A DNA stretch of 64,000 nt from Candidatus Doudnabacteria bacterium (GCA_016186915.1 JACPKU010000006.1:249619-313618), one strand, 5' to 3'; numbered from the stretch's first letter, positions 5,605 through 62,970 are shown. Notes: generated by a model from the letters alone, not told the origin. Made by a program: numbers and translations.

Positions 5605-5741
5605 AATTCCTGATGCATATTACTTGGCTTTAATTATACCATAAATCTTCAGTATCACCAAAAAAACGAGATAATATTAATATAAAAGATAATAATATGT
5701 GGCGCTATTGATGTTGATGTTAGTTGATGTTATTTTAGAAT

Positions 5742-5768
5742 ACAATTATCCCGATCGGGATTTTTATA
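5742..5768. repeat. 27-bp direct repeat DR-A1 (ACAATTATCCCGATCGGGATTTTTATA) with 14-bp perfect palindrome core ATCCCGATCGGGAT
   Basis: Identical copy at 6357-6383; lies 6 nt downstream of the stop of gene 5775..6353. Confidence 0.9.
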
Positions 5769-5774
5769 ATCGGA

Positions 5775-6353
5775 CTAAACCTTTCTGAGGTTAAATTTTT
5801 CTAATAAATCCTTTTGAATATCAATGTTTTCAGCTATAATCATTCTGACAAATGATCTGACTTCATAAATCTCCTTTAAGAAATCGAGCTCGTCTTCGCA
5901 GGGATAAGGGTACACCCAAACACTCTTTTGAATGGAGGTGAATCCAAGTTCTTTCAGCTTACCTCTAAAAAATTTTCTTGCTGCGCTAAATTTCTCTGGA
6001 ACGTCAAAAATAACCACCCTCCACTTACCATCCCATCGCCTTGGCTTACTTATCACCATTTCATCTAAATTATAACTTAAAAGTCTTTGATGACCATTTT
6101 TTGTTACCTCAACTATTGTTTTTCCCGCATGATTGGACACAGAGATCAGATTCTGCTTTTCAAGATTTCGGAAAGATTGTTCAATTTGCCGGCGATTATA
6201 TTTCTTGAGTCTCTGAAATTCAAATTTACCTAAGCCAAGTTCTTCTGAAAAAATCATTACGCCTAAGGGGCCAGCAACCGGAATAGCTAACATCCCGGCC
6301 GTTGCCACTATTTTTAATATCGTCTTGGCGATTTCTGACCTTTTGGCCTTCAT
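5775..6353 (-). CDS. protein with hydrophobic N-terminus, winged-helix-like middle and Cas2/VapD-like C-terminal domain (paralog A)
   Basis: N-terminal hydrophobic helix ILKIVATAGMLAIPVAGPLGVMIF. C-terminal KWRVVIFDVPEK...GKLKELGFTSIQKSVWVYPY fits the Cas2 beta1-Asp pattern and the R..L...G..vQ.SVF pattern. About 45% identical to ORF 13662..14228. Confidence 0.55.
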   Translation of the reverse strand: MKAKRSEIAKTILKIVATAGMLAIPVAGPLGVMIFSEELGLGKFEFQRLKKYNRRQIEQSFRNLEKQNLISVSNHAGKTIVEVTKNGHQRLLSYNLDEMVISKPRRWDGKWRVVIFDVPEKFSAARKFFRGKLKELGFTSIQKSVWVYPYPCEDELDFLKEIYEVRSFVRMIIAENIDIQKDLLEKFNLRKV

Positions 6354-6356
6354 ATT

Positions 6357-6383
6357 ACAATTATCCCGATCGGGATTTTTATA
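6357..6383. repeat. 27-bp direct repeat DR-A2, identical to DR-A1
   Basis: Lies 3 nt upstream of the ATG of gene 5775..6353. On the minus strand it reads TATAAAAATCCCGATCGGGATAATTGT aat ATG. Confidence 0.9.
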
Positions 6384-6389
6384 TTATAG

Positions 6390-6416
6390 ATCGCTGTACA
6401 AGCGATCTATAAATCT
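6390..6416. terminator. 11-bp-stem hairpin TATAGATCGCT-GTACA-AGCGATCTATA downstream of greA
   Basis: Perfect stem seen in the sequence. It sits between the greA stop and DR-A2, and T/A runs flank it. Confidence 0.4.
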
Positions 6417-7567: not shown

Positions 7568-9490
7568 TTAACGATTTTCTGCCCACCACTGGTAAACCTC
7601 GCGGGCCACTGGCACGGCCGCTGAACCGCCCTCGCCGCCTGCTTCAACTAAAATAGTGAGCGCAATCTGTGGATTGGAGGCTGGCGCATATGAAGTAAAC
7701 CAGGCGTGAGTAAGATTTGAATTTTGAGAACTAAATTGAGCCGTACCGGTTTTCCCCGCCACCTCGATCGGTAAAGAATTTAGAGATGCCGCACTCCCGG
7801 CTGTCACGGTCTGCCTCATGGCCCTTTGGATTGTCTGGACAATTCCCGAATCCAAAAAATTCTCTTTAATCACCTTCGGTTCAACCTCTGCCAAAACGTT
7901 ACCTGCTGAATCAGTCACGCTGTCTAAAATATACGGCTGCATAATCTTCCCTCCGTTGGCTATGGTTGCAGTAAGATTATTCAGCTGAACCGGAGTAATC
8001 AGCAAGTCTCCTTGTCCGATGGCGAAATGGTAGGTGTTGCCCAAAAACCACCGCTCGCCTCGGGTTTGAAGTTTCCACTTAGGATCCGGAACCAGCCCGA
8101 ATCTTTCGTTGGGCAAATCTATTCCGGTTTTTTCGCCGAAATTGAATTTTCGATACCACTCGGCAAGCTTGTCCGGACCTAAACCTGCTATCTCAGTTTT
8201 GGGATTCCCTCCACCAACGGTATAAAAATAAATATCAGAAGATCTGGCGATCGCAGAATAGATGTCCATCAGACCCAAACCTGACCTGTCATAGCCATAA
8301 TAGTTAAAACTGCCAATTTGGATCACGCCATCATCTAAAATTTTCGTGTTGGGCGTAACCACCCCTTCTGTCAGTGCCGCAATGCCAAGCAAGGGTTTGA
8401 CAGTCGATCCAGGCGGGTAGGCCCCGGCAACCGCGCGATTAAGCAAAGGGATATTAGGATCATTAATCAAGTTAACATATTGGTCTTGCGTCAGGCCTTG
8501 GGCAAAAAGATTGCTGTCGAAGGAAGGCAGAGAGACCAAGGCTAAAATTTCGCCAGTGTTCGGGTCTTGCGCCACGGCCGCGGCCTTCCGCGAGCTGGTT
8601 CTTGCTGTGCCCTTAACCAAACTTTCATACAAAACCCTCTGCAGCTCGCCATCGATATTGAGTTTGAGGTTGTTCCCCGGCTCTGCCTCTATCTGGCCTA
8701 AGCCTCGCTTAAAATTCCCGTTGACGTCTATTTCAAACTGATTTCTGCCGGCTGTTCCTCGCAGATAATTTTCGTATTGAGCTTCAATTCCTGTTTTGCC
8801 AATGTAGTCATTAATCAAATAGTTTTGGTCTCTATACCGCGCCAGCTCTTCTGCCGTGATTTTGCCGGTATATCCGACCAGATGAGCGTACATCTCTGCC
8901 TGTTTATAGTCTCTTACTGGATTGTTTTGGACCTCAAACCCGGCCAGTTCATTTTGCTTGCTGATAAGAATCAAGGCTTTGTCTTTCGACACGCTGCTGT
9001 CGATTACCTGCGGCTGAATGTTCGTTTCGTTAATTGCTTTAAATTTTTCCAGCAGTTCTGCTTCGGTTTTTCCCAAAATTGCCGCGATTGTCCTGATGCT
9101 GGCTTCACGCTCTTCCACGCTCAGAGGCAAGTTCGGAGCCACCACGACCAGTTCAAAGCTTGGAATGTTGTTCGCAATGACATTGTTGGAACGGTCAACA
9201 ATCAGGCCTCTGGGCGCTAATATATATTGAGTTCTAAGTTTGTTGCCCTCGGCGAGATCTCGATATTCTTCCCCCTTGACCCCTTGAAGGAAAAAAATAC
9301 GGACGACGATTATCAATAAACTGAAAACCACAATTGCCGAAATTGCAGAGTAATTAAGTTTTAGGCGTTCATCATCCACAGGTTCAACACTATCTTCCAA
9401 TTGCGTATCCAAATAAGCTTCATCAAAGCTCAAATTCTTCTTTCGACGAAGGCTTTTGTTTTCTATCCCTTTGATTTCAAACGGATCCAT
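7568..9490 (-). CDS. mrdA: penicillin-binding protein 2 (peptidoglycan D,D-transpeptidase)
   Basis: N-terminal TM, STVKP (SxxK) and KTGTAQ motifs; sits in the mre cluster. Confidence 0.85.
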   Translation of the reverse strand: MDPFEIKGIENKSLRRKKNLSFDEAYLDTQLEDSVEPVDDERLKLNYSAISAIVVFSLLIIVVRIFFLQGVKGEEYRDLAEGNKLRTQYILAPRGLIVDRSNNVIANNIPSFELVVVAPNLPLSVEEREASIRTIAAILGKTEAELLEKFKAINETNIQPQVIDSSVSKDKALILISKQNELAGFEVQNNPVRDYKQAEMYAHLVGYTGKITAEELARYRDQNYLINDYIGKTGIEAQYENYLRGTAGRNQFEIDVNGNFKRGLGQIEAEPGNNLKLNIDGELQRVLYESLVKGTARTSSRKAAAVAQDPNTGEILALVSLPSFDSNLFAQGLTQDQYVNLINDPNIPLLNRAVAGAYPPGSTVKPLLGIAALTEGVVTPNTKILDDGVIQIGSFNYYGYDRSGLGLMDIYSAIARSSDIYFYTVGGGNPKTEIAGLGPDKLAEWYRKFNFGEKTGIDLPNERFGLVPDPKWKLQTRGERWFLGNTYHFAIGQGDLLITPVQLNNLTATIANGGKIMQPYILDSVTDSAGNVLAEVEPKVIKENFLDSGIVQTIQRAMRQTVTAGSAASLNSLPIEVAGKTGTAQFSSQNSNLTHAWFTSYAPASNPQIALTILVEAGGEGGSAAVPVAREVYQWWAENR

Positions 9491-10871: not shown

Positions 10872-11930
10872 CTACCTGGGGATTCGCTCAAATTCCGTAG
10901 CTACCAAAACATCTTTCAGCGTTTCCAGGTCTTCCAGCACGATCCCCGCTCCTCTGGCCACAGCGGTTAGTGGATCGTCCGCCACGTATACTGGCATTTG
11001 GGTTTCTTCCGCAACCAGCCGATCCAGTCCTCGAAGCAAGGCGCCGCCACCGGCCAGTGTGATTCCCTGCTCCATGATATCTGCCACGAGCTCTGGCGGG
11101 GTTTCTTCCACAGCCGTTTTGATGCTGTTGACTATCACTCTTACTGATCTCTGGAGCGCCCCTCTGATTTGTTCATCGGTTACAGCCACTTCTTTTGGCA
11201 AGCCAGTAACCAAATCTCTGCCTCGAATTTTGGCCATTAAGGTTTCTTTCATTGGATAAGCCGAGCCGATCTTAATCTTCACATCCTCGGCTGTCCGCTC
11301 ACCCAATAGCAAATTAAACTCGTCTCTGGCAAACTGAATGATGTTTTGATTCATCTCGTCTCCCGCCACGCGGATGCTTCGCGACGTGACAATCCCACCC
11401 AAAGAAATCACTGCAATCTCCGCTGTCCCGCCGCCTATATCTACGATCATTGAACCTGATGCGTCCTGAATCGGCAATCTCGCGCCGATGGCCGCAGCCA
11501 TGGGCTCTTCGATCAAAAAAGCCTGTCTGGCACCCGCGTTGAGAGTAGCGTCCTGAACGGCTCGCCTTTCCACTTCCGTAACCCCCGAGGGAATGCCCAC
11601 CACCACCCGCGGTCTGGATAAAAACCCAAAAGCGGATTGATTAACCTTTTCAATAAAATATCTAAGCATCTGCTCAGTGATTTCAAAATCCGAAATCACG
11701 CCGTCGACAAGCGGCCGGTTTGCCACGATATGGGATGGAGTCCTGCCGACCATCCGCTTGGCTTCTTCGCCGATCGCCAAAATTTGCTTGGTTTTCTGGT
11801 TTACCGCGACAACCGACGGCTCATTAATAACAATGCCCTTGCCGTGAACATAAACAAGGGTGTTGGCTGTTCCCAAATCAATTCCCACATCATTTGAAAA
11901 TTTATCAAAAACGAAATCTAGAAGCGCCAT
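10872..11930 (-). CDS. mreB: actin-like rod shape protein MreB
   Basis: GIDLGTANTLVYV phosphate-1 motif; 352 aa. Confidence 0.9.
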   Translation of the reverse strand: MALLDFVFDKFSNDVGIDLGTANTLVYVHGKGIVINEPSVVAVNQKTKQILAIGEEAKRMVGRTPSHIVANRPLVDGVISDFEITEQMLRYFIEKVNQSAFGFLSRPRVVVGIPSGVTEVERRAVQDATLNAGARQAFLIEEPMAAAIGARLPIQDASGSMIVDIGGGTAEIAVISLGGIVTSRSIRVAGDEMNQNIIQFARDEFNLLLGERTAEDVKIKIGSAYPMKETLMAKIRGRDLVTGLPKEVAVTDEQIRGALQRSVRVIVNSIKTAVEETPPELVADIMEQGITLAGGGALLRGLDRLVAEETQMPVYVADDPLTAVARGAGIVLEDLETLKDVLVATEFERIPR

Positions 11931-11986: not shown

Positions 11987-13225
11987 TTATAAGCTCTCGG
12001 AAAGATCCTTTATTTTTACTAATTTTGTTTTATCGCTTCCTCGTTGTTTGGTTTCGACCGAGTCAGACTGCAATGTCTTATCAGAAACCAATACGCGGGT
12101 GGGGATCCCGATCAAATCGCTATCTGCAAATTTACTCCCTGCGCTTACTTCTCTCTCATCGTATAGTACCTGAGTGTTCGTCTCAAGTAAAGCTTTGTAT
12201 ATTTTGTCCGCGGGTGTTTGATTTTTCGAGATATTGATAAGATGGATATCGAAAGGAGCAATGGCCTTCGGCCAGATCATCCCTTGCTCATCATGACTGA
12301 CTTCCACCACCGCTCCCATAAGCCTGCCCAGACCAATACCGTAACTGCCCATAATCACCGGCTGTTCCCTGCCTGTCTCGTCTTTTACTGTAAGACCCAA
12401 GGCTTGGGAATACTTAGTTCCCAGTGGAAAAATATTCCCCACTTCAATGGCTTTCTTTTCTTTAAGCTTGGTTTTATCTAAGCCCAGCTTTTTTAAATTT
12501 TCTTCGGTATAGACTTCTTTATTTATGGCCAGCTTCTTTTTTTCATCGACATAAATTACGTCCTCGCCCGAGTCAGTAACAGTCTGAAACTCGTCGGTAA
12601 GCCCGGTAGTAAAAGATCCGCCCGCGGCGGCGGTGCGAAATGTTCTATCCCCCAAACCCACGCGCTCGAAAATTTTAAGATAGGCGCCGGCGCACAATTC
12701 ATAAAATTCCCTAAATTCTTTTTGGGTTTTACTGAAGGAATAAAGATCCTTCATCAAAAACTCTCGGCCTCTTAAAATCCCGCTTTTGGCGCGCAACTCA
12801 TTTCTAAATTTCGTTTGAAATTGGTAAATATAGATCGGTAAATCTTTATAGGAACTTACATAATGGGTAAGCAAAAAAGTAAGCGGCTCTTCATGCGTAT
12901 TGGCAATGCCGACGTCTGAGCCGTTGGCTAACTTGGTCTTAAACCAATTATCCACCAGCTTGTCGTCCCACCGGTTGGTTTTTCCCCAAACCTCCTTATC
13001 CTGCAGCGTGGTCATGAGAACTTCCTGTCCGCCGATCGCATTCATTTCTTCTCGGATGATCTGTTCAATTTTTTTCAACACCATCAAGCCAAGCGGCAAG
13101 TACTCGTACACGCCAGCCATCACTTTATGGATAAAGCCGGCGCGCGTCAAAAGCCGGGCATTGGTGGCCACTTCGTCCTTTGGCGCTTGTTTTAAAACTT
13201 TGGTAAATAATTGCGACTGCTTCAT
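11987..13225 (-). CDS. proS: prolyl-tRNA synthetase
   Basis: Class II core with LLTRAGFIHKVMAGVYEYLPLG; 412 aa. Confidence 0.8.
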   Translation of the reverse strand: MKQSQLFTKVLKQAPKDEVATNARLLTRAGFIHKVMAGVYEYLPLGLMVLKKIEQIIREEMNAIGGQEVLMTTLQDKEVWGKTNRWDDKLVDNWFKTKLANGSDVGIANTHEEPLTFLLTHYVSSYKDLPIYIYQFQTKFRNELRAKSGILRGREFLMKDLYSFSKTQKEFREFYELCAGAYLKIFERVGLGDRTFRTAAAGGSFTTGLTDEFQTVTDSGEDVIYVDEKKKLAINKEVYTEENLKKLGLDKTKLKEKKAIEVGNIFPLGTKYSQALGLTVKDETGREQPVIMGSYGIGLGRLMGAVVEVSHDEQGMIWPKAIAPFDIHLINISKNQTPADKIYKALLETNTQVLYDEREVSAGSKFADSDLIGIPTRVLVSDKTLQSDSVETKQRGSDKTKLVKIKDLSESL

Positions 13226-13277
13226 TTGCTTTATTTCAGAGATGAAATATTAATATCTCAATCTATTATACCTTCTC

Positions 13278-13305
13278 TTGACAAAATGCGCAAAAAAAGT
13301 ATTAT
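13278..13305 (+). promoter_or_regulatory. sigma70-like promoter TTGACA-N16-TATTAT
   Basis: -35 at 13278-13283 and -10 at 13300-13305. Confidence 0.5.
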
Positions 13306-13311
13306 ATTATT

Positions 13312-13556
13312 TTAAAGCTGGCACCGACCACCCTACCAGCGAAGTGGCAGAGTGCTTTGCTTGCGAAGCGCAGCAAGAGCGCGAGGCAGCGGCCAGATTC
13401 ACTGAGGCGGCATTGGATGTAGACCAAGCTGTTCGGCAACGAGCAGGTGAAATGCCCAGCGATGCAATGGAACGGACGCAAGAGCGCGATCCGTAGCTAC
13501 GAAAACCCGGGGAGCGTAAAGATTTTATATCCTTCGCTCCCCACACCCTTTTTTTC
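13312..13556 (+). ncRNA. candidate GC-rich sRNA (about 245 nt) with its own promoter and intrinsic terminator; identity unknown
   Basis: About 58% GC against about 42% background. Terminator GGGGAGCG-loop-CGCTCCCC plus T7 at 13509-13555. Internal repeat GCAAGAGCGCGA occurs twice. The overlapping 72-aa ORF has no RBS and its ATG lies within the -35. Confidence 0.4.
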
Positions 13557-13627
13557 TAAAGGACTTTTTTTATTTTTTTATTTTAAAGCTCCCCTGCAAC
13601 CACGCTCAGCCCTCTTGATCTTTTCAC

Positions 13628-13648
13628 GCGATCGCTGAAAAAGGTCAA
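13628..13648. repeat. direct repeat DR-B1 GCGATCGCTGAAAAAGGTCAA (GCGATCGC palindromic core)
   Basis: 18/21 identity with 14294-14314; lies 13 nt downstream of the stop of gene 13662..14228. Confidence 0.8.
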
Positions 13649-13661
13649 CAGATCCAGTGAC

Positions 13662-14228
13662 TCAAAGCTCAAATAACCTAACTAAGTCCTTTTGAATATC
13701 AATCTTTTGCACTGTCAATATTCTAATATAGGATCTCACTTCATAAAGCTCACCGATAAAATCAACTTCATCTTCACAGGAATAGGGATAAATCCAAACA
13801 CTTTTCTGCAATTTATAAAACCCTAGCTCTTTTAGTTTATTACGCAGACACTCCCTCCCCATCTTATATTTTTCGGGAATATCAAAAATTACCACACGCC
13901 ATTTACGATCCCATTTCCAGGGCTTTTTGATTCGCATGTCTTCAAGTTTGTATTTCAATACTTTATTTTGTCCGTTCTTTGTAAGTCCTACCACGGTTGT
14001 GTCACCATTTTGTGATACGCCAATCAATCTTTGCTTCTCTATTCTCCTTAAAGAATCATAGACCTTCCGTCTGCCCACTCTTGGGAGACCAAGTTCGTCG
14101 GCAATCACCATAAATGTCAATGGCCCTGCAACAGGAATTGCCAACACTCCGGCTGCGGCGAGAGTTAGCAAGACGGTTTTAGTGATCTTTAGTCTTCGTT
14201 TTGTTTTTTCAGTGTTCAATTTCTTCAT
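13662..14228 (-). CDS. protein with hydrophobic N-terminus, winged-helix-like middle and Cas2/VapD-like C-terminal domain (paralog B)
   Basis: Same architecture as 5775..6353. WRVVIFDIPEKY...NKLKELGFYKLQKSVWIYPYSCEDEVDF. Confidence 0.55.
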   Translation of the reverse strand: MKKLNTEKTKRRLKITKTVLLTLAAAGVLAIPVAGPLTFMVIADELGLPRVGRRKVYDSLRRIEKQRLIGVSQNGDTTVVGLTKNGQNKVLKYKLEDMRIKKPWKWDRKWRVVIFDIPEKYKMGRECLRNKLKELGFYKLQKSVWIYPYSCEDEVDFIGELYEVRSYIRILTVQKIDIQKDLVRLFEL

Positions 14229-14293
14229 AGTTCAATTTCTTCATAATCTTCGGGTAACTTTATCTCCGGATTACTTTTATTGATCATTTACTG

Positions 14294-14314
14294 CGATCGC
14301 TTAAAATAGTCAAT
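14294..14314. repeat. direct repeat DR-B2 GCGATCGCTTAAAATAGTCAA
   Basis: Lies about 65 nt upstream of the start of gene 13662..14228. Confidence 0.8.
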
Positions 14315-14355: not shown

Positions 14356-15471
14356 TTAAATAAACAAATTCTTCACTCTTTCTATTATATCAAACCGGCC
14401 GAAGTCTTTGACCGTAACCAAAACCATAAGCAATAACAGCAGGACAAAGCCAACCGTATTGGCCACTTGCTCAATCTTGGCTCTCATTTTCTTGCCTCGA
14501 ACCTTTTCGATTATCAAAAATAAAATTCTTCCGCCGTCCAGGGCTGGAAACGGTATAGCATTAATAATTGCCAAATTCACTGAAAGCACGGCCGTAAATT
14601 GGACTAAATAAATAAATCCAAGTTGCGCCACATCGCGAGTCAGCACGGCAATCCCCACCGGTCCGGCCAAATCAGCGCCCACCCCCTGTCCTGCAAACAA
14701 CCTCGATATGATTACGCCAAAAGCGGAAAGAATGCTCAACAGTAGATTAAACGTTGCCACTAGGCCGCGTGGCAGAGTCTCATACCACGGATAAGCCACT
14801 CTGGCCACTGTGGATACAGTGACGCCAATTGGTCCTTCGTCTTCAGGATGGTCTTCTCTTGGAATCAATGTCCGGTCAAATTCTTCGCCGCCTCGCTTTA
14901 TAGTGTAGAGGGTTTCAAGTCCGGCATTATTTTTAGCTAAAATCGCGGTTTCCTCAAGCGTGTCAATCTCCTCGCCGTTAATTGCCAGCACACTGTCCCC
15001 AACTCGCAGTCCCGCCTGATCAGCAGGTGAATCCGAAGCTATCTCCACCACTGAAACATGAACTTCACGAACCTTAGCAGAATCAGAAAGCTCTGCAGGG
15101 TCTCCGATCACGGTGGGCAGCCCCAGTCCCAGCCCTAAAGAAATTAACACCCAAGCCAGAATAAAATTCATTGTCACGCCAGCAACCAAAACCATAAAAC
15201 GCGAGCCGAATCGTTTATTGCCGAAACTTCTCGGATTATCAGAATCCGAACCGTCCTCACCCACGATTTTTACGAATCCCCCAAGCGGTATCCAGTTAAG
15301 CGAATAAACCGTACCTCCTTTTTTAAATCCAAACAGGCGTGGAGGAAAGCCAAACCCAAACTCCTCTACTTCCATCCCGGCCCGCTTGGCCATGACAAAA
15401 TGTCCCAGCTCGTGCACAAACACGAGCAGGCCTAAAATCAGGATAAAAATTATTATTGTGAGAATAATCAT
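14356..15471 (-). CDS. rseP: RIP metalloprotease RseP (site-2 protease)
   Basis: HELGH zinc motif, PDZ domain and LDG motif; 371 aa. Confidence 0.85.
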   Translation of the reverse strand: MIILTIIIFILILGLLVFVHELGHFVMAKRAGMEVEEFGFGFPPRLFGFKKGGTVYSLNWIPLGGFVKIVGEDGSDSDNPRSFGNKRFGSRFMVLVAGVTMNFILAWVLISLGLGLGLPTVIGDPAELSDSAKVREVHVSVVEIASDSPADQAGLRVGDSVLAINGEEIDTLEETAILAKNNAGLETLYTIKRGGEEFDRTLIPREDHPEDEGPIGVTVSTVARVAYPWYETLPRGLVATFNLLLSILSAFGVIISRLFAGQGVGADLAGPVGIAVLTRDVAQLGFIYLVQFTAVLSVNLAIINAIPFPALDGGRILFLIIEKVRGKKMRAKIEQVANTVGFVLLLLLMVLVTVKDFGRFDIIERVKNLFI

Positions 15472-19583: not shown

Positions 19584-20600
19584 TTATTTTGTTGCCAAAA
19601 TACTTTTTTTATAGCTGTCCAAATTGTCCAACGCCACCCCTGTGCCGGCAGCCACGCATAAAATAGCGTTTTCAGCCACGTAAGCTGGAACTCCGGTAGT
19701 TTGGCCAATTAACTTGTCGATATTTCGCAAGAGCGCGGTGCCGCCTGTCAAAACCATGCCCTTATCAATTATATCCGCGGCCAGCTCAGGCGGAGTTTCT
19801 TGCAGGACGGTTCGGACTGCCTGGATGATTTCCCGCAGTTCTTCCTGAATCGCTTCCACGATTTCATTGGTGGAAATTTTAATCGTTTTGGGAAGCCCCT
19901 GTATCAAGTCCCTGCCTCGAATTTCAAGCTTGGTCTCTTTCTCCACTGGTATGGCCGAGCCGATCTTAATTTTAATATCTTCCGCAGTCCGGTCTCCCAC
20001 AGCCAAGCCGTGCTTGCGGCGGATATATTCTGCGATGGCCTGATCAATCTTGTTGCCCGCCACCCTCACAGAAGTCTGGGTCACAATCCCGCCAAGTGAA
20101 AGCACTGCCACGTCCGTGGTGCCGCCGCCAATGTCTATGATCATGTTGCCAGAAGGATTCGCGATGTCTATCCCAGCGCCGATAGCGGCGGCCACGGTTT
20201 CTTTGATTATGTAAGCGGCTTTGGCCCCGGCCGCGTGCGCCGCGTCAATCACCGCTCTTCTTTCAGTGGAAGTGATGCCGCCGGGTACGGAGATCATAAC
20301 TTCAGGGCGAAAAAATCGGACATTGCCCGTGGCCTTGTTAATAAAATACCGAAGCATAGCTTCTGTCACCCGGTAATCTGCAATCACCCCGTCCTTCATA
20401 GGTCTGTGCGCCACGATTGTGTCAGGAGTGCGGCCCAACATATCCTTGGCTTCCTGTCCCACGGCCAAAATCTTATTGTCAACTACAGAAATCGCCACCA
20501 CTGTGGGCTCATTAATAATAATGCCCTGCTTGGGCACGAATACTAAGGTGTTGGCAGTTCCTAAATCTATTCCAATTTGCCGTAAAAACAATCGAGCCAT
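19584..20600 (-). CDS. second MreB/Mbl-like actin homolog
   Basis: GIDLGTANTLVFV; 338 aa; a paralog of 10872..11930. Confidence 0.85.
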   Translation of the reverse strand: MARLFLRQIGIDLGTANTLVFVPKQGIIINEPTVVAISVVDNKILAVGQEAKDMLGRTPDTIVAHRPMKDGVIADYRVTEAMLRYFINKATGNVRFFRPEVMISVPGGITSTERRAVIDAAHAAGAKAAYIIKETVAAAIGAGIDIANPSGNMIIDIGGGTTDVAVLSLGGIVTQTSVRVAGNKIDQAIAEYIRRKHGLAVGDRTAEDIKIKIGSAIPVEKETKLEIRGRDLIQGLPKTIKISTNEIVEAIQEELREIIQAVRTVLQETPPELAADIIDKGMVLTGGTALLRNIDKLIGQTTGVPAYVAENAILCVAAGTGVALDNLDSYKKSILATK

Positions 20601-24433: not shown

Positions 24434-24446
24434 CCCACAAAACTGC

Positions 24447-24476
24447 ACGTAAAATGCGCGGCCGCGCATTTTACGT
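24447..24476. terminator. 30-bp perfect palindrome ACGTAAAATGCGCGGCCGCGCATTTTACGT between convergent genes
   Basis: Seen in the sequence; a likely bidirectional terminator for ORF 23189 (+) and rnhA (-). Confidence 0.55.
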
Positions 24477-24481
24477 TACGA

Positions 24482-62096: not shown

Positions 62097-62257
62097 ATTA
62101 ATTCCTTAATTAATTACTTATTAATGCTTAATAGATTATAAAGGATTTTTGTCTACCTGTAAAGCTTAAGACAAATAAAAAACCTTGATCTTGGATTTTT
62201 CTCGATCTTCCCCACTATACCAGAAACCCCCAGGCTTGTAAAGAAATGGTAGCCAAA

Positions 62258-62286
62258 TTGCAAAAAGATCCAATAAATACTATACT
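62258..62286 (+). promoter_or_regulatory. promoter TTGCAA-N17-TATACT for ORF 62309
   Basis: Seen in the sequence; the ORF-track start at 62246 lies upstream of the -10. Confidence 0.5.
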
Positions 62287-62308
62287 TTTAGGCAACAAGG
62301 AGGATCTC

Positions 62309-62686
62309 ATGGCAATTGCTTTTACTGTCGTTGCGATCGCTGTTCCCCTGATCGCGTTTGTCCTTGGTGTGTACTTCTACCGAACGCGTCCGAACAGAAG
62401 GTCTGGCGGAGATATCGTCTCCTCTAGAGATCACATCACGGAAGAAAAGGTCCACCGTGCGATGCAGGCTCAGTCCGACCCAGTGGAATGGGAGAGACTG
62501 CTCTCTGAGCTCGAACTACACATCCGGGAATGCAGACAGTGCCACAAGCAATTCCTTCCTTCGGTTCGCGCTGTGCGCCTCTTGCCACCAGGCGAGGTGC
62601 TCCTCAATCTCTCGCCCGAAAACGACCGATGGAACAAGATGGCGCTGGGACTCAACGCCTCTGCCGACGATCGAGCGAACGACTAA
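62309..62686 (+). CDS. GC-rich 125-aa single-TM hypothetical protein (MAIAFTVVAIAVPLIAFVLGVYF...CRQCHKQF...)
   Basis: RBS AAGGAGG. T8 run after the stop. GC-rich relative to the flanks. Confidence 0.5.
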   Translation: MAIAFTVVAIAVPLIAFVLGVYFYRTRPNRRSGGDIVSSRDHITEEKVHRAMQAQSDPVEWERLLSELELHIRECRQCHKQFLPSVRAVRLLPPGEVLLNLSPENDRWNKMALGLNASADDRAND

Positions 62687-62815
62687 CCCCGTCCCTCGGC
62701 CGTCTTTTTTTTATCCTTCCGCCCTTCCTTCTTTTCCACTCCGCGGATCAGGAGAAAAGCGAGGCGTGGATTTTCAGCAGCCTTCGGAGGCCAACACCAA
62801 CTATTTCTGTAGCGA

Positions 62816-62930
62816 GGGATTGTTGCAAAATTAACCTTCGGAAGCCGGTTCGTCCGGCTGAGAAAGTAGGCTGCATCCCGCCGAAGTTCCCACGAGGCGG
62901 GATGACAGCCGATATTTTTGCAACAATCCC
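62816..62930. ncRNA. structured element closed by a perfect 15-bp inverted repeat (GGGATTGTTGCAAAA ... TTTTGCAACAATCCC) enclosing nested and pseudoknot-capable hairpins
   Basis: GCCGG-TTCGT-CCGGC hairpin. GGCTGCATCCCGCC...GGCGGGATG-A-CAGCC helix whose loop CCGAAG can pair with the upstream CTTCGG. No ORF. Confidence 0.4.
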
Positions 62931-62970
62931 GAGCGATGACGACCGGTAATTTACAGTCAGCTCGAGCGAT

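Follow-up and report, generated by a model that had tools for sequence, protein, structure and literature searches.

Short PaaX-like genes bracketed by paired palindromes in Candidatus Doudnabacteria: probable autoregulation by a DNA-binding protein with a Cas2-fold domain

We analysed a 64,000-nucleotide stretch of the genome of a Candidatus Doudnabacteria bacterium (GCA_016186915.1, JACPKU010000006.1:249619-313618; hereafter the window), in which two minus-strand genes encode short proteins made of a winged helix and a domain with the Cas2 fold. The first gene (paralog 1, 5775-6353, 192 amino acids) lies between greA and lysS, and the second (paralog 2, 13662-14228, 188 amino acids) lies between rseP (14356-15471) and proS (11987-13225). 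The two products are 53% identical (E 2e-74), and tblastn found no third copy in the window. Each gene carries two copies of its own long palindrome, one before the start codon and one past the stop codon. A 100% identical NCBI record (P0001) places the start of paralog 1 20 residues later, which gives a product of 172 amino acids and removes part of a conserved N-terminal segment, and the Logan gene calls give the identical 192-residue product. Because the N-terminus is conserved across homologs and independent gene calls agree, we favoured the longer start.

What kind of protein do these genes encode? Residues 105-180 of paralog 1 (5814-6041, minus strand) match the PaaX central Cas2-like domain, PF20803 (PaaX_M), and the two paralogs score 77.6 and 81.5 bits against a cut-off of 24 (E 8e-22 and 5e-23). 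Two AlphaFold2 runs, based on 43 and 117 sequences, gave the same topology at predicted local distance difference test scores (pLDDT) of 88.9 and 90.1: a helix at residues 2-19, a strand at 21-24, helices at 29-38, 43-50 and 54-66, a wing at 70-83, a helix at 85-97, and then a beta-alpha-beta-beta-alpha-beta domain. The helix at residues 54-66 (6156-6194, minus strand), which directly precedes the wing, is the predicted recognition helix. When the whole chain was searched with Foldseek, Escherichia coli PaaX (8a39) came first, followed by 3l09 and 3kfw; PadR and Cas2 proteins matched the separate domains. The ferredoxin-like fold with an Asp ending beta-1 is present, the family profile aligns to Cas2 SSO8090 through vviFDv...R..l...Lk.lG...iQ.S, and the residues W107, R112, D117, R126, Q142 and S144 are invariant across 117 sequences. 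An earlier note on this DNA had described two paralogs in which a Cas2/VapD-like domain is fused to a winged helix, and this fusion is correct. The nearest analogy that it offered, PaaX, turned out to be more than an analogy, since the match to a Pfam domain defined on PaaX is significant and 8a39 is the top whole-chain fold match. Contrary to its remark that the combination could not be matched to a characterised family, the protein has the PaaX architecture in its N and M domains and lacks only the C-domain. The VapD part of the label has no specific support, as no VapD family of Pfam or NCBIfam was matched at E<=10.

The protein is nevertheless neither Cas2 nor an ordinary PaaX or PadR regulator of known function. 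Against the PaaX equivalog (TIGR02277), the paralogs reach 29.2 and 30.7 bits with a cut-off of 264.55, the PaaX_C effector-binding domain gives no Pfam match, the chain ends at residue 192, shortly after the Cas2-fold domain, and no paa genes adjoin either paralog. We regard it as a short PaaX-like variant within a large unstudied family. Some annotation pipelines name homologs 'PaaX' and others 'CRISPR-associated endonuclease Cas2', which raises the question of whether the genes are orphan Cas2 genes or remnants of a CRISPR adaptation module. The shared fold and the near-threshold scores of Cas2 models speak for this, but the scores for the Cas2 family (TIGR01573/PF09827) are 18.8 and 23.0 bits, under the cut-off of 24.5, whereas PF20803 scores at about 80 bits, and the PADLOC Cas2 models give sub-threshold matches only (E 2e-5 to 1e-2). 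Furthermore, the N-terminal winged helix is present, also in the homologs labelled Cas2, and these lie among housekeeping genes in the loci inspected, as did the family gene in every neighbourhood seen. As the earlier note had stated, there is no CRISPR context here: searches for tandem and spaced repeats found no array in the window, cas1 is absent from it, and a Pfam scan of 30 further window open reading frames (ORFs) found no cas gene, with 28 of housekeeping type (glycolysis, cell-wall synthesis, translation) and two without a match. Taken together, these observations make a Cas2 origin scarcely credible, and for practical purposes we consider it refuted.

A hydrophobic N-terminus, which the earlier note read as a sign of membrane tethering, is real and family-wide. 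In paralog 1 the uncharged stretch covers residues 15-36 (6246-6311, minus strand; IVATAGMLAIPVAGPLGVMIFS). The Kyte-Doolittle 19-residue maximum is 1.85 in paralog 1 and 2.13 in paralog 2 and reaches 1.6 or more in 79% of 117 homologs, a hydropathy like that of a transmembrane segment, and the uncharged N-terminal run has a median length of 25 residues across homologs. Basic residues flank the stretch on both sides, and their distribution (+4 after, +2 before) would favour a topology with the C-terminus inside; the family profile also aligns the stretch weakly to the potassium-channel S6 helix. If the stretch were a membrane anchor, the protein might bind the sites of its own gene in cis and tether that chromosomal locus to the membrane, and would then not be a soluble regulator. 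The position of the sites beside the gene would suit such a cis-acting protein, but we regard this tether as improbable. Both AlphaFold2 runs fold the stretch, with only moderate confidence (pLDDT 60-76), into the first helix, first strand and second helix of a canonical winged helix, and a winged helix deprived of the segment would lose its first helix. One Pro of the stretch is nearly invariant, Pro and Gly together make up about 16% of it, and a simple sum on the Hessa scale is unfavourable, with a median of +3 kcal/mol and 8% of members at or below 0. We lean towards a buried winged-helix core and consider membrane association of the stretch rather unlikely.

The palindromes were an unexpected feature. 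Upstream of paralog 1, a dyad at 6352-6387 contains the exact 28-mer TATAAAAATCCCGATCGGGATAATTGTA at 6356-6383; its centre (6369/6370) lies 16 nt before the ATG, and the 28-mer ends 3 nt before the ATG. Downstream, the dyad at 5737-5772 (centre 5754/5755) contains the same exact 28-mer at 5741-5768, 7 nt past the stop codon. These are the only two copies of the 28-mer in 64 kb, where none would be expected. Paralog 2 has different palindromes in the same arrangement: TTGACTATTTTAAGCGATCGCAGTAAATGATCAA at 14280-14313, with its centre (14296/14297) 68 nt before the ATG, and TTGACCTTTTTCAGCGATCGCGTGAAAAGATCAA at 13615-13648, starting 14 nt past the stop codon. These two match at 27 of 34 bases around GCGATCGC, both reading TTGAC..TTTT.AGCGATCGC...AAA.GATCAA. 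Further occurrences of CCGATCGG and GCGATCGC in the window were rejected as sites, because they lie inside coding sequences (that of ribosomal protein L24 at 54694, that of PBP2 at 8247, and an ORF at 62333). Another long dyad, a solitary one at 24443-24478 (centre 24461; halves AAAATGCGCGG and CCGCGCATTTT) was likewise set aside, as it resembles an ordinary bidirectional terminator between the convergent genes for a PEGA-domain protein and RNase H. We also noted, at about 6389-6415 between the greA stop codon and the paralog 1 promoter, a hairpin with a 10-bp stem (TATAGATCGC-ttgtaca-GCGATCTATA). Its half-sites (GCGATC) resemble the GCGATCGC core of the paralog 2 palindrome, and cross-regulation between the paralogs is a possibility suggested by this resemblance.

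Is this arrangement peculiar to the window? We compared 80 homologous loci from other genomes (GTDB; numbers prefixed L below), in which a palindromic sequence of up to 40-43 bp is common to the upstream and downstream flanks of the family gene. This palindrome varies in sequence from genome to genome and from paralog to paralog. A flank-match test gave a score of 14 or more for 48 of the 73 family genes tested, whereas 4 of the 390 other genes of these loci that served as controls reached it (Mann-Whitney p 1e-27). Long dyads in family loci are concentrated at the gene ends, 63 of 82 lying within 300 bp of them, and 475 kb of ProRS loci without a family gene contain 10 long dyads in total. 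The paired sites are specific to the short PaaX-like gene family. Additional copies of a locus's own palindrome are rare and were noted in L064, L016, L014, L037 and L073. Third copies with the same arms and core stand 0.1-5 kb from the gene, at 4084 in L016, about 6877 in L064, 353 in L014 and, counted from the start, about -46 in L073; the copy in L073 has a different yet symmetric spacer, and those in L016 and L064 are intergenic. At 3950 in L036, an unrelated long dyad lies 38 nt before a gene start. These copies and the L036 dyad may be rare targets in trans.

Alignment of 42 site pairs on their dyad centres, which without exception fall between two bases, revealed a common 36-bp layout in three parts: an 8-bp core is separated on either side by a 4-bp spacer from an outer arm of 9 bp. 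Positions +-1-4 are symmetric in 0.81-1.0 and identical between the copies in 0.93-1.0 of cases, and positions +-10-17 are symmetric in 0.83-0.98 and conserved between the copies in 0.79-0.95; positions +-5-8 are variable, and values beyond +-19 are at background. Typical cores are GCTA/TAGC, GCAT/ATGC, ACGA/TCGT, GCCA/TGGC and GCGG/CCGC, the slash marking the centre. Because specific positions are constrained in both copies, the alignment argues that both are functional sites.

Could the palindromes instead be mere transcription terminators or RNA hairpins that no protein recognises? The core of the paralog 1 palindrome was flagged as a weak terminator-like hairpin, and the symmetric compensating changes between copies described below fit selection for base pairing. 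Against this, a T-run follows only 12-17% of the copies, and because so few precede T-runs the palindromes are not typical intrinsic terminators; we rejected that role for them. Moreover, termination requires neither identity between the two sides nor paralog-specific sequences, the centre is self-complementary in every case, a property not needed in a hairpin loop, the upstream copy in leaderless loci precedes the transcript, and divergence of the recognition helix tracks change in the site. We consider it most improbable that they are terminators or RNA hairpins alone. Another candidate, that the downstream palindrome is the operator of the next gene, was also rejected: the paired sites are present both when the downstream neighbour is co-directional (69%) and when it is convergent (56%), and because the pair occurs in either orientation the downstream copy is not simply the next gene's operator.

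Two further observations connect the sites with the gene and with its product. First, the upstream copy is associated with the promoter. The centre of the upstream dyad precedes the start codon by 16-176 nt, and by 51 nt or less in 26 of the 42 aligned loci. Of the 42 upstream copies, 13 have a perfect TATAAT 8-42 nt past the dyad centre, compared with 1 of the 42 downstream copies. In L038, L045, L051 and L054, a TGnTATAAT element is followed after 6 nt by the ATG and is wholly overlapped by the site; judged by its sequence, this is an extended -10 element that would drive a leaderless message. In the window, a -10-like hexamer (TATAAT, 6383-6388, minus strand), read by eye and missing from a promoter scan that requires a -35 match, overlaps the left arm of paralog 1's upstream dyad and would put the transcription start within that dyad. 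Second, the predicted recognition helix diverges together with the site in one paralog pair. L031 and L055, paralogs of one Yonathbacteria genome, are 78% identical, but their palindromes are not alike; within the predicted recognition helix 12 of 17 positions differ, and outside it 26 of 163 (Fisher p 4.6e-6). L055 and L039, which have similar palindromes, show 2 of 17 recognition-helix differences. This co-divergence concerns one informative comparison and not the family as a whole.

We consider it probable that the family protein is a dimeric, autoregulating DNA-binding protein of the PaaX type, whose cognate operator is present twice and brackets the gene. By analogy with the PaaX 'dimerization motif', the Cas2-fold domain would join two subunits, and the two winged helices would read the outer arms of the paralog-specific 36-bp palindrome. 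The E. coli PaaX operator is TGATTC(N27)GAATCA and the middle region of PaaX is its dimerization motif (PMC9493321); that operator spans 39 bp, and the wide arm spacing of the family sites fits a PaaX-type dimer. With the upstream palindrome overlapping its own promoter, the protein would repress its own transcription, and the same protein would also bind the second copy just past the stop codon. This downstream copy is most likely an auxiliary operator, which might form a loop of about 600-700 bp between the sites or might block RNA polymerase and thereby insulate the unit. A further target or a ligand may also exist.

Several points weigh against this explanation. Strong sites are found only at the gene itself, so that no regulatory output is evident. 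Nothing in the published PaaX operator corresponds to the conserved 8-bp core. No part of the protein is as conserved as the Cas2-fold domain (9 of 84 positions differ between L031 and L055), whose conservation exceeds what a plain dimerisation module needs, and the pattern F-D...R...R...Q-S is invariant in the family but lost by E. coli PaaX, whose residues at the aligned positions we take to be L-L-S-E. Differences between the two copies of a site are symmetric beyond chance (23 observed, about 5 expected), which a simple half-site reading does not predict; they may stem from the formation of hairpins or cruciforms, or from template switching that corrects near-palindromes. Finally, genes with 75-85% amino acid identity can have unrelated surroundings, their DNA homology extending no further than the outer edges of the palindromes, which hints at a mobile module. 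An autorepressor as such gives no account of the second site, the conservation of the core, the retention of the Cas2-type residues or the symmetric copy differences.

How might such a distribution have arisen? The order greA-X-lysS, where X is the family gene, occurs in the window and in a Nealsonbacteria genome, and the order rseP-X-proS is shared by the window with a further Doudnabacteria genome, with Nomurabacteria and Levyibacteriota, and with one Parcubacteria genome, in which X is inverted. The rseP-proS junction holds a family gene in loci W2, L001, L023, L042 and L069, inverted in place in L069, and the occupants of shared junctions are not each other's closest relatives. None of 80 related metagenome ProRS loci has a family gene, and in many of them rseP abuts proS. 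The 75-85% identical genes of L045/L051, L039/L055 and L021/L023 share no other homologous gene within +-6 kb, and the homology ends at -46 and +43 (L045/L051) or at -39 and +45 (L038/L045). At 70-80% identity, 7 of 24 gene pairs share any neighbour, and an orientation antiparallel to both neighbours is three times as frequent in family genes as in control genes (10 of 62 compared with 18 of 321). Such observations would fit a palindrome-gene-palindrome unit that is a small selfish or mobile cassette, with autoregulation as a side property and with a Cas2-fold dimer on the dyad core acting as a nuclease or strand-transfer centre. The conserved core would then fall on the dimer axis, and the invariance of the Cas2-like residue pattern would also suit this reading; a catalytic role has been reported for this pattern in Cas2.

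On balance, however, we consider a mobile cassette unlikely. An empty site with a solitary palindrome was not present in the rseP-proS gaps of the 80 metagenome ProRS loci, look-ups of P0022, GreA and ProRS returned identical contexts only and no strain-level difference in presence or absence, and no tandem cassettes were seen. Nothing significant was found in PHROGs, and 2.9 million viral contigs yielded one matching locus. We know of no nuclease or recombinase activity of the PaaX_M domain, which we count against the cassette. Position-specific conservation of both sites is equally expected of operators, and a relocated gene must in any case bring its own regulatory sites. A stronger version, in which the unit is an autonomous element of the candidate phyla radiation and the Cas2-fold dimer, placed by the winged helices, cuts or joins DNA at the dyad core and so moves or inverts the unit, seems to us slightly less likely still. 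If it were true, the protein would be a sequence-specific, Cas1-independent DNA enzyme on the Cas2 fold, possibly a relative of the ancestor of PaaX and Cas2.

The same Cas2-type residue pattern, the several paralogs per genome, the fast-diverging palindromic operators over the promoter and the frequent relocation would also suit a toxin-antitoxin-like module in a single chain, with a Cas2/VapD-type ribonuclease toxin restrained and autoregulated by the fused winged helix. We give this little credence: there is no second gene and no labile partner, the Cas2 and VapD searches described above gave only sub-threshold matches or none, and the downstream site would be left without explanation. The autorepressor remains the reading that we prefer.

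The family is large. A profile search against clusters made at 50% identity recovered 1,460 with E<=1e-30 and 4,333 with E<=1e-10, and the best 150 clusters are all full-length matches of about 170-260 amino acids, mostly 180-200. With one genome per GTDB species there are at least 591 matches, nearly all with a Patescibacteria lineage in the record title, and in several genomes there is more than one copy. We found no description of the family in the full-text literature searched, nor of self-bracketing palindromes, which as far as we found are undescribed.

Other features of the window and of the homologous loci deserve mention. The window genes around the paralogs are core housekeeping genes (alr, serS, lysS, greA, mreBCD, proS, rseP, frr, glycolysis genes, a ribosomal protein operon, tuf and fusA), together with a gene for a PBP2-type penicillin-binding protein (Pfam PBP_dimer and Transpeptidase), and the window contains two MreB paralogs no more than 10 kb apart (10872-11930 and 19584-20600). 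No known RNAs were found when the window and the spacer at 13.2-13.7 kb were scanned with Rfam and for tRNAs. This 436-bp spacer between paralog 2 and proS (13226-13661) has a GC-rich core (about 13300-13560) that differs from the DNA around it. The spacer matches no Rfam family, its RNA folding z-score is modest (-2.85), and it contains a plus-strand ORF of 72 amino acids (13278-13496) with no Pfam match; Logan contig L092 calls no gene there. The nearest ProRS loci, L094 and L097, also have long gaps before proS, but these show no sequence similarity to the spacer. Across the start codon of paralog 2 (14214-14245) lies a perfect 16-bp tandem duplication (GTTCAATTTCTTCATA twice, plus strand), which gives rise to another ATG, out of frame and 16 nt upstream, and to a short, overlapping upstream ORF. 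The tuf-fusA interval (62246-62950) is GC-rich and, unusually amid minus-strand housekeeping genes, contains a plus-strand ORF of 146 amino acids with a hydrophobic N-terminus and no Pfam match, as well as a long inverted repeat (GGGATTGTTGCAAAA...TTTTGCAACAATCCC). In the ProRS locus L101 (1085), the rseP-proS gap holds a different small gene (150 amino acids, helix-turn-helix-like by eye), and the centre of a long dyad precedes the start of this gene by 7 nt. In L024, an ORF of 84 amino acids (11238-11492), which by eye resembles a GIY-YIG nuclease in its motif only, is flanked by two copies of one long palindrome (halves GGTCTGGCTACGCCAGA and TCTGGCGTAGCCAGACC, at 11123 and 11538); the same was noted in L070 about 3735 nt past the family gene. 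Bracketing of small genes by identical palindromes may be a wider habit of these genomes.

Bacteria of the candidate phyla radiation have few recognised transcription factors. The family, with 1,460 clusters and several paralogs per genome, offers a readable rule that relates a protein to a 36-bp site, which is rare from sequence alone, and it should provide a test bed for the divergence of DNA-binding specificity after gene duplication. Since thousands of such proteins occur in Patescibacteria and some are labelled 'Cas2', CRISPR surveys of these bacteria should exclude them. The two-site bracket, the dyad core and the Cas2-type residues also raise the question of whether a Cas2-fold dimer contacts or processes DNA outside the Cas1-Cas2 complex.

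Several known systems resemble parts of this arrangement. The looping repressors LacI, GalR and DeoR have identical operators at the promoter and at a distance, both bound by one protein; in the family, the second operator lies past the stop codon of the regulator itself, and no structural-gene target is evident. RAYT transposases with their repetitive extragenic palindromes (REP), and TnpA of IS200/IS605, are also small genes flanked by cognate palindromes that co-vary with them, in units of similar size (about 0.7 kb). Unlike these, the family alignment lacks an HUH motif and has neither a His nor a Tyr column that is invariant, and unlike REP sequences the palindromes are not dispersed over the genome but present in two copies per locus, as perfect double-strand dyads through the centre. 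PadR and MarR repressors are dimeric winged-helix proteins that bind palindromes over their own promoters, as proposed here, whereas their sequence matches are insignificant and dimerisation through a Cas2-fold domain would give a much wider half-site spacing. Cas2 itself (3exc, 8ia4, 5xvn) shares the ferredoxin-like fold, the beta-1 strand ending in Asp and the R...L..G..Q.S pattern, and differs in that the family protein is fused to a DNA-binding domain, scores under the Cas2 cut-offs and has no cas1 or array beside it. The closest likeness is to the phenylacetyl-CoA-responsive PaaX of E. coli and Pseudomonas (8a39, 3l09). The family protein is shorter (192 as against about 305-316 amino acids) and lacks the effector domain, remains far below the equivalog cut-off and has no paa operon nearby, and it keeps the Cas2-type F-D...R...R...Q-S residues, while its sites add an 8-bp core and lie on both sides of the gene. 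The N-terminal winged helix and the PF20803 middle domain are nonetheless shared, PaaX is the best whole-chain fold match, and PaaX represses its own promoter, as the family protein would do. Finally, the PaaX operator consists of inverted hexamers 27 bp apart (PMC9493321), a span similar to that of the 36-bp dyads; these have arms at +-10-17, flank the gene and upstream overlap a -10 element, and may be bound in a like manner.

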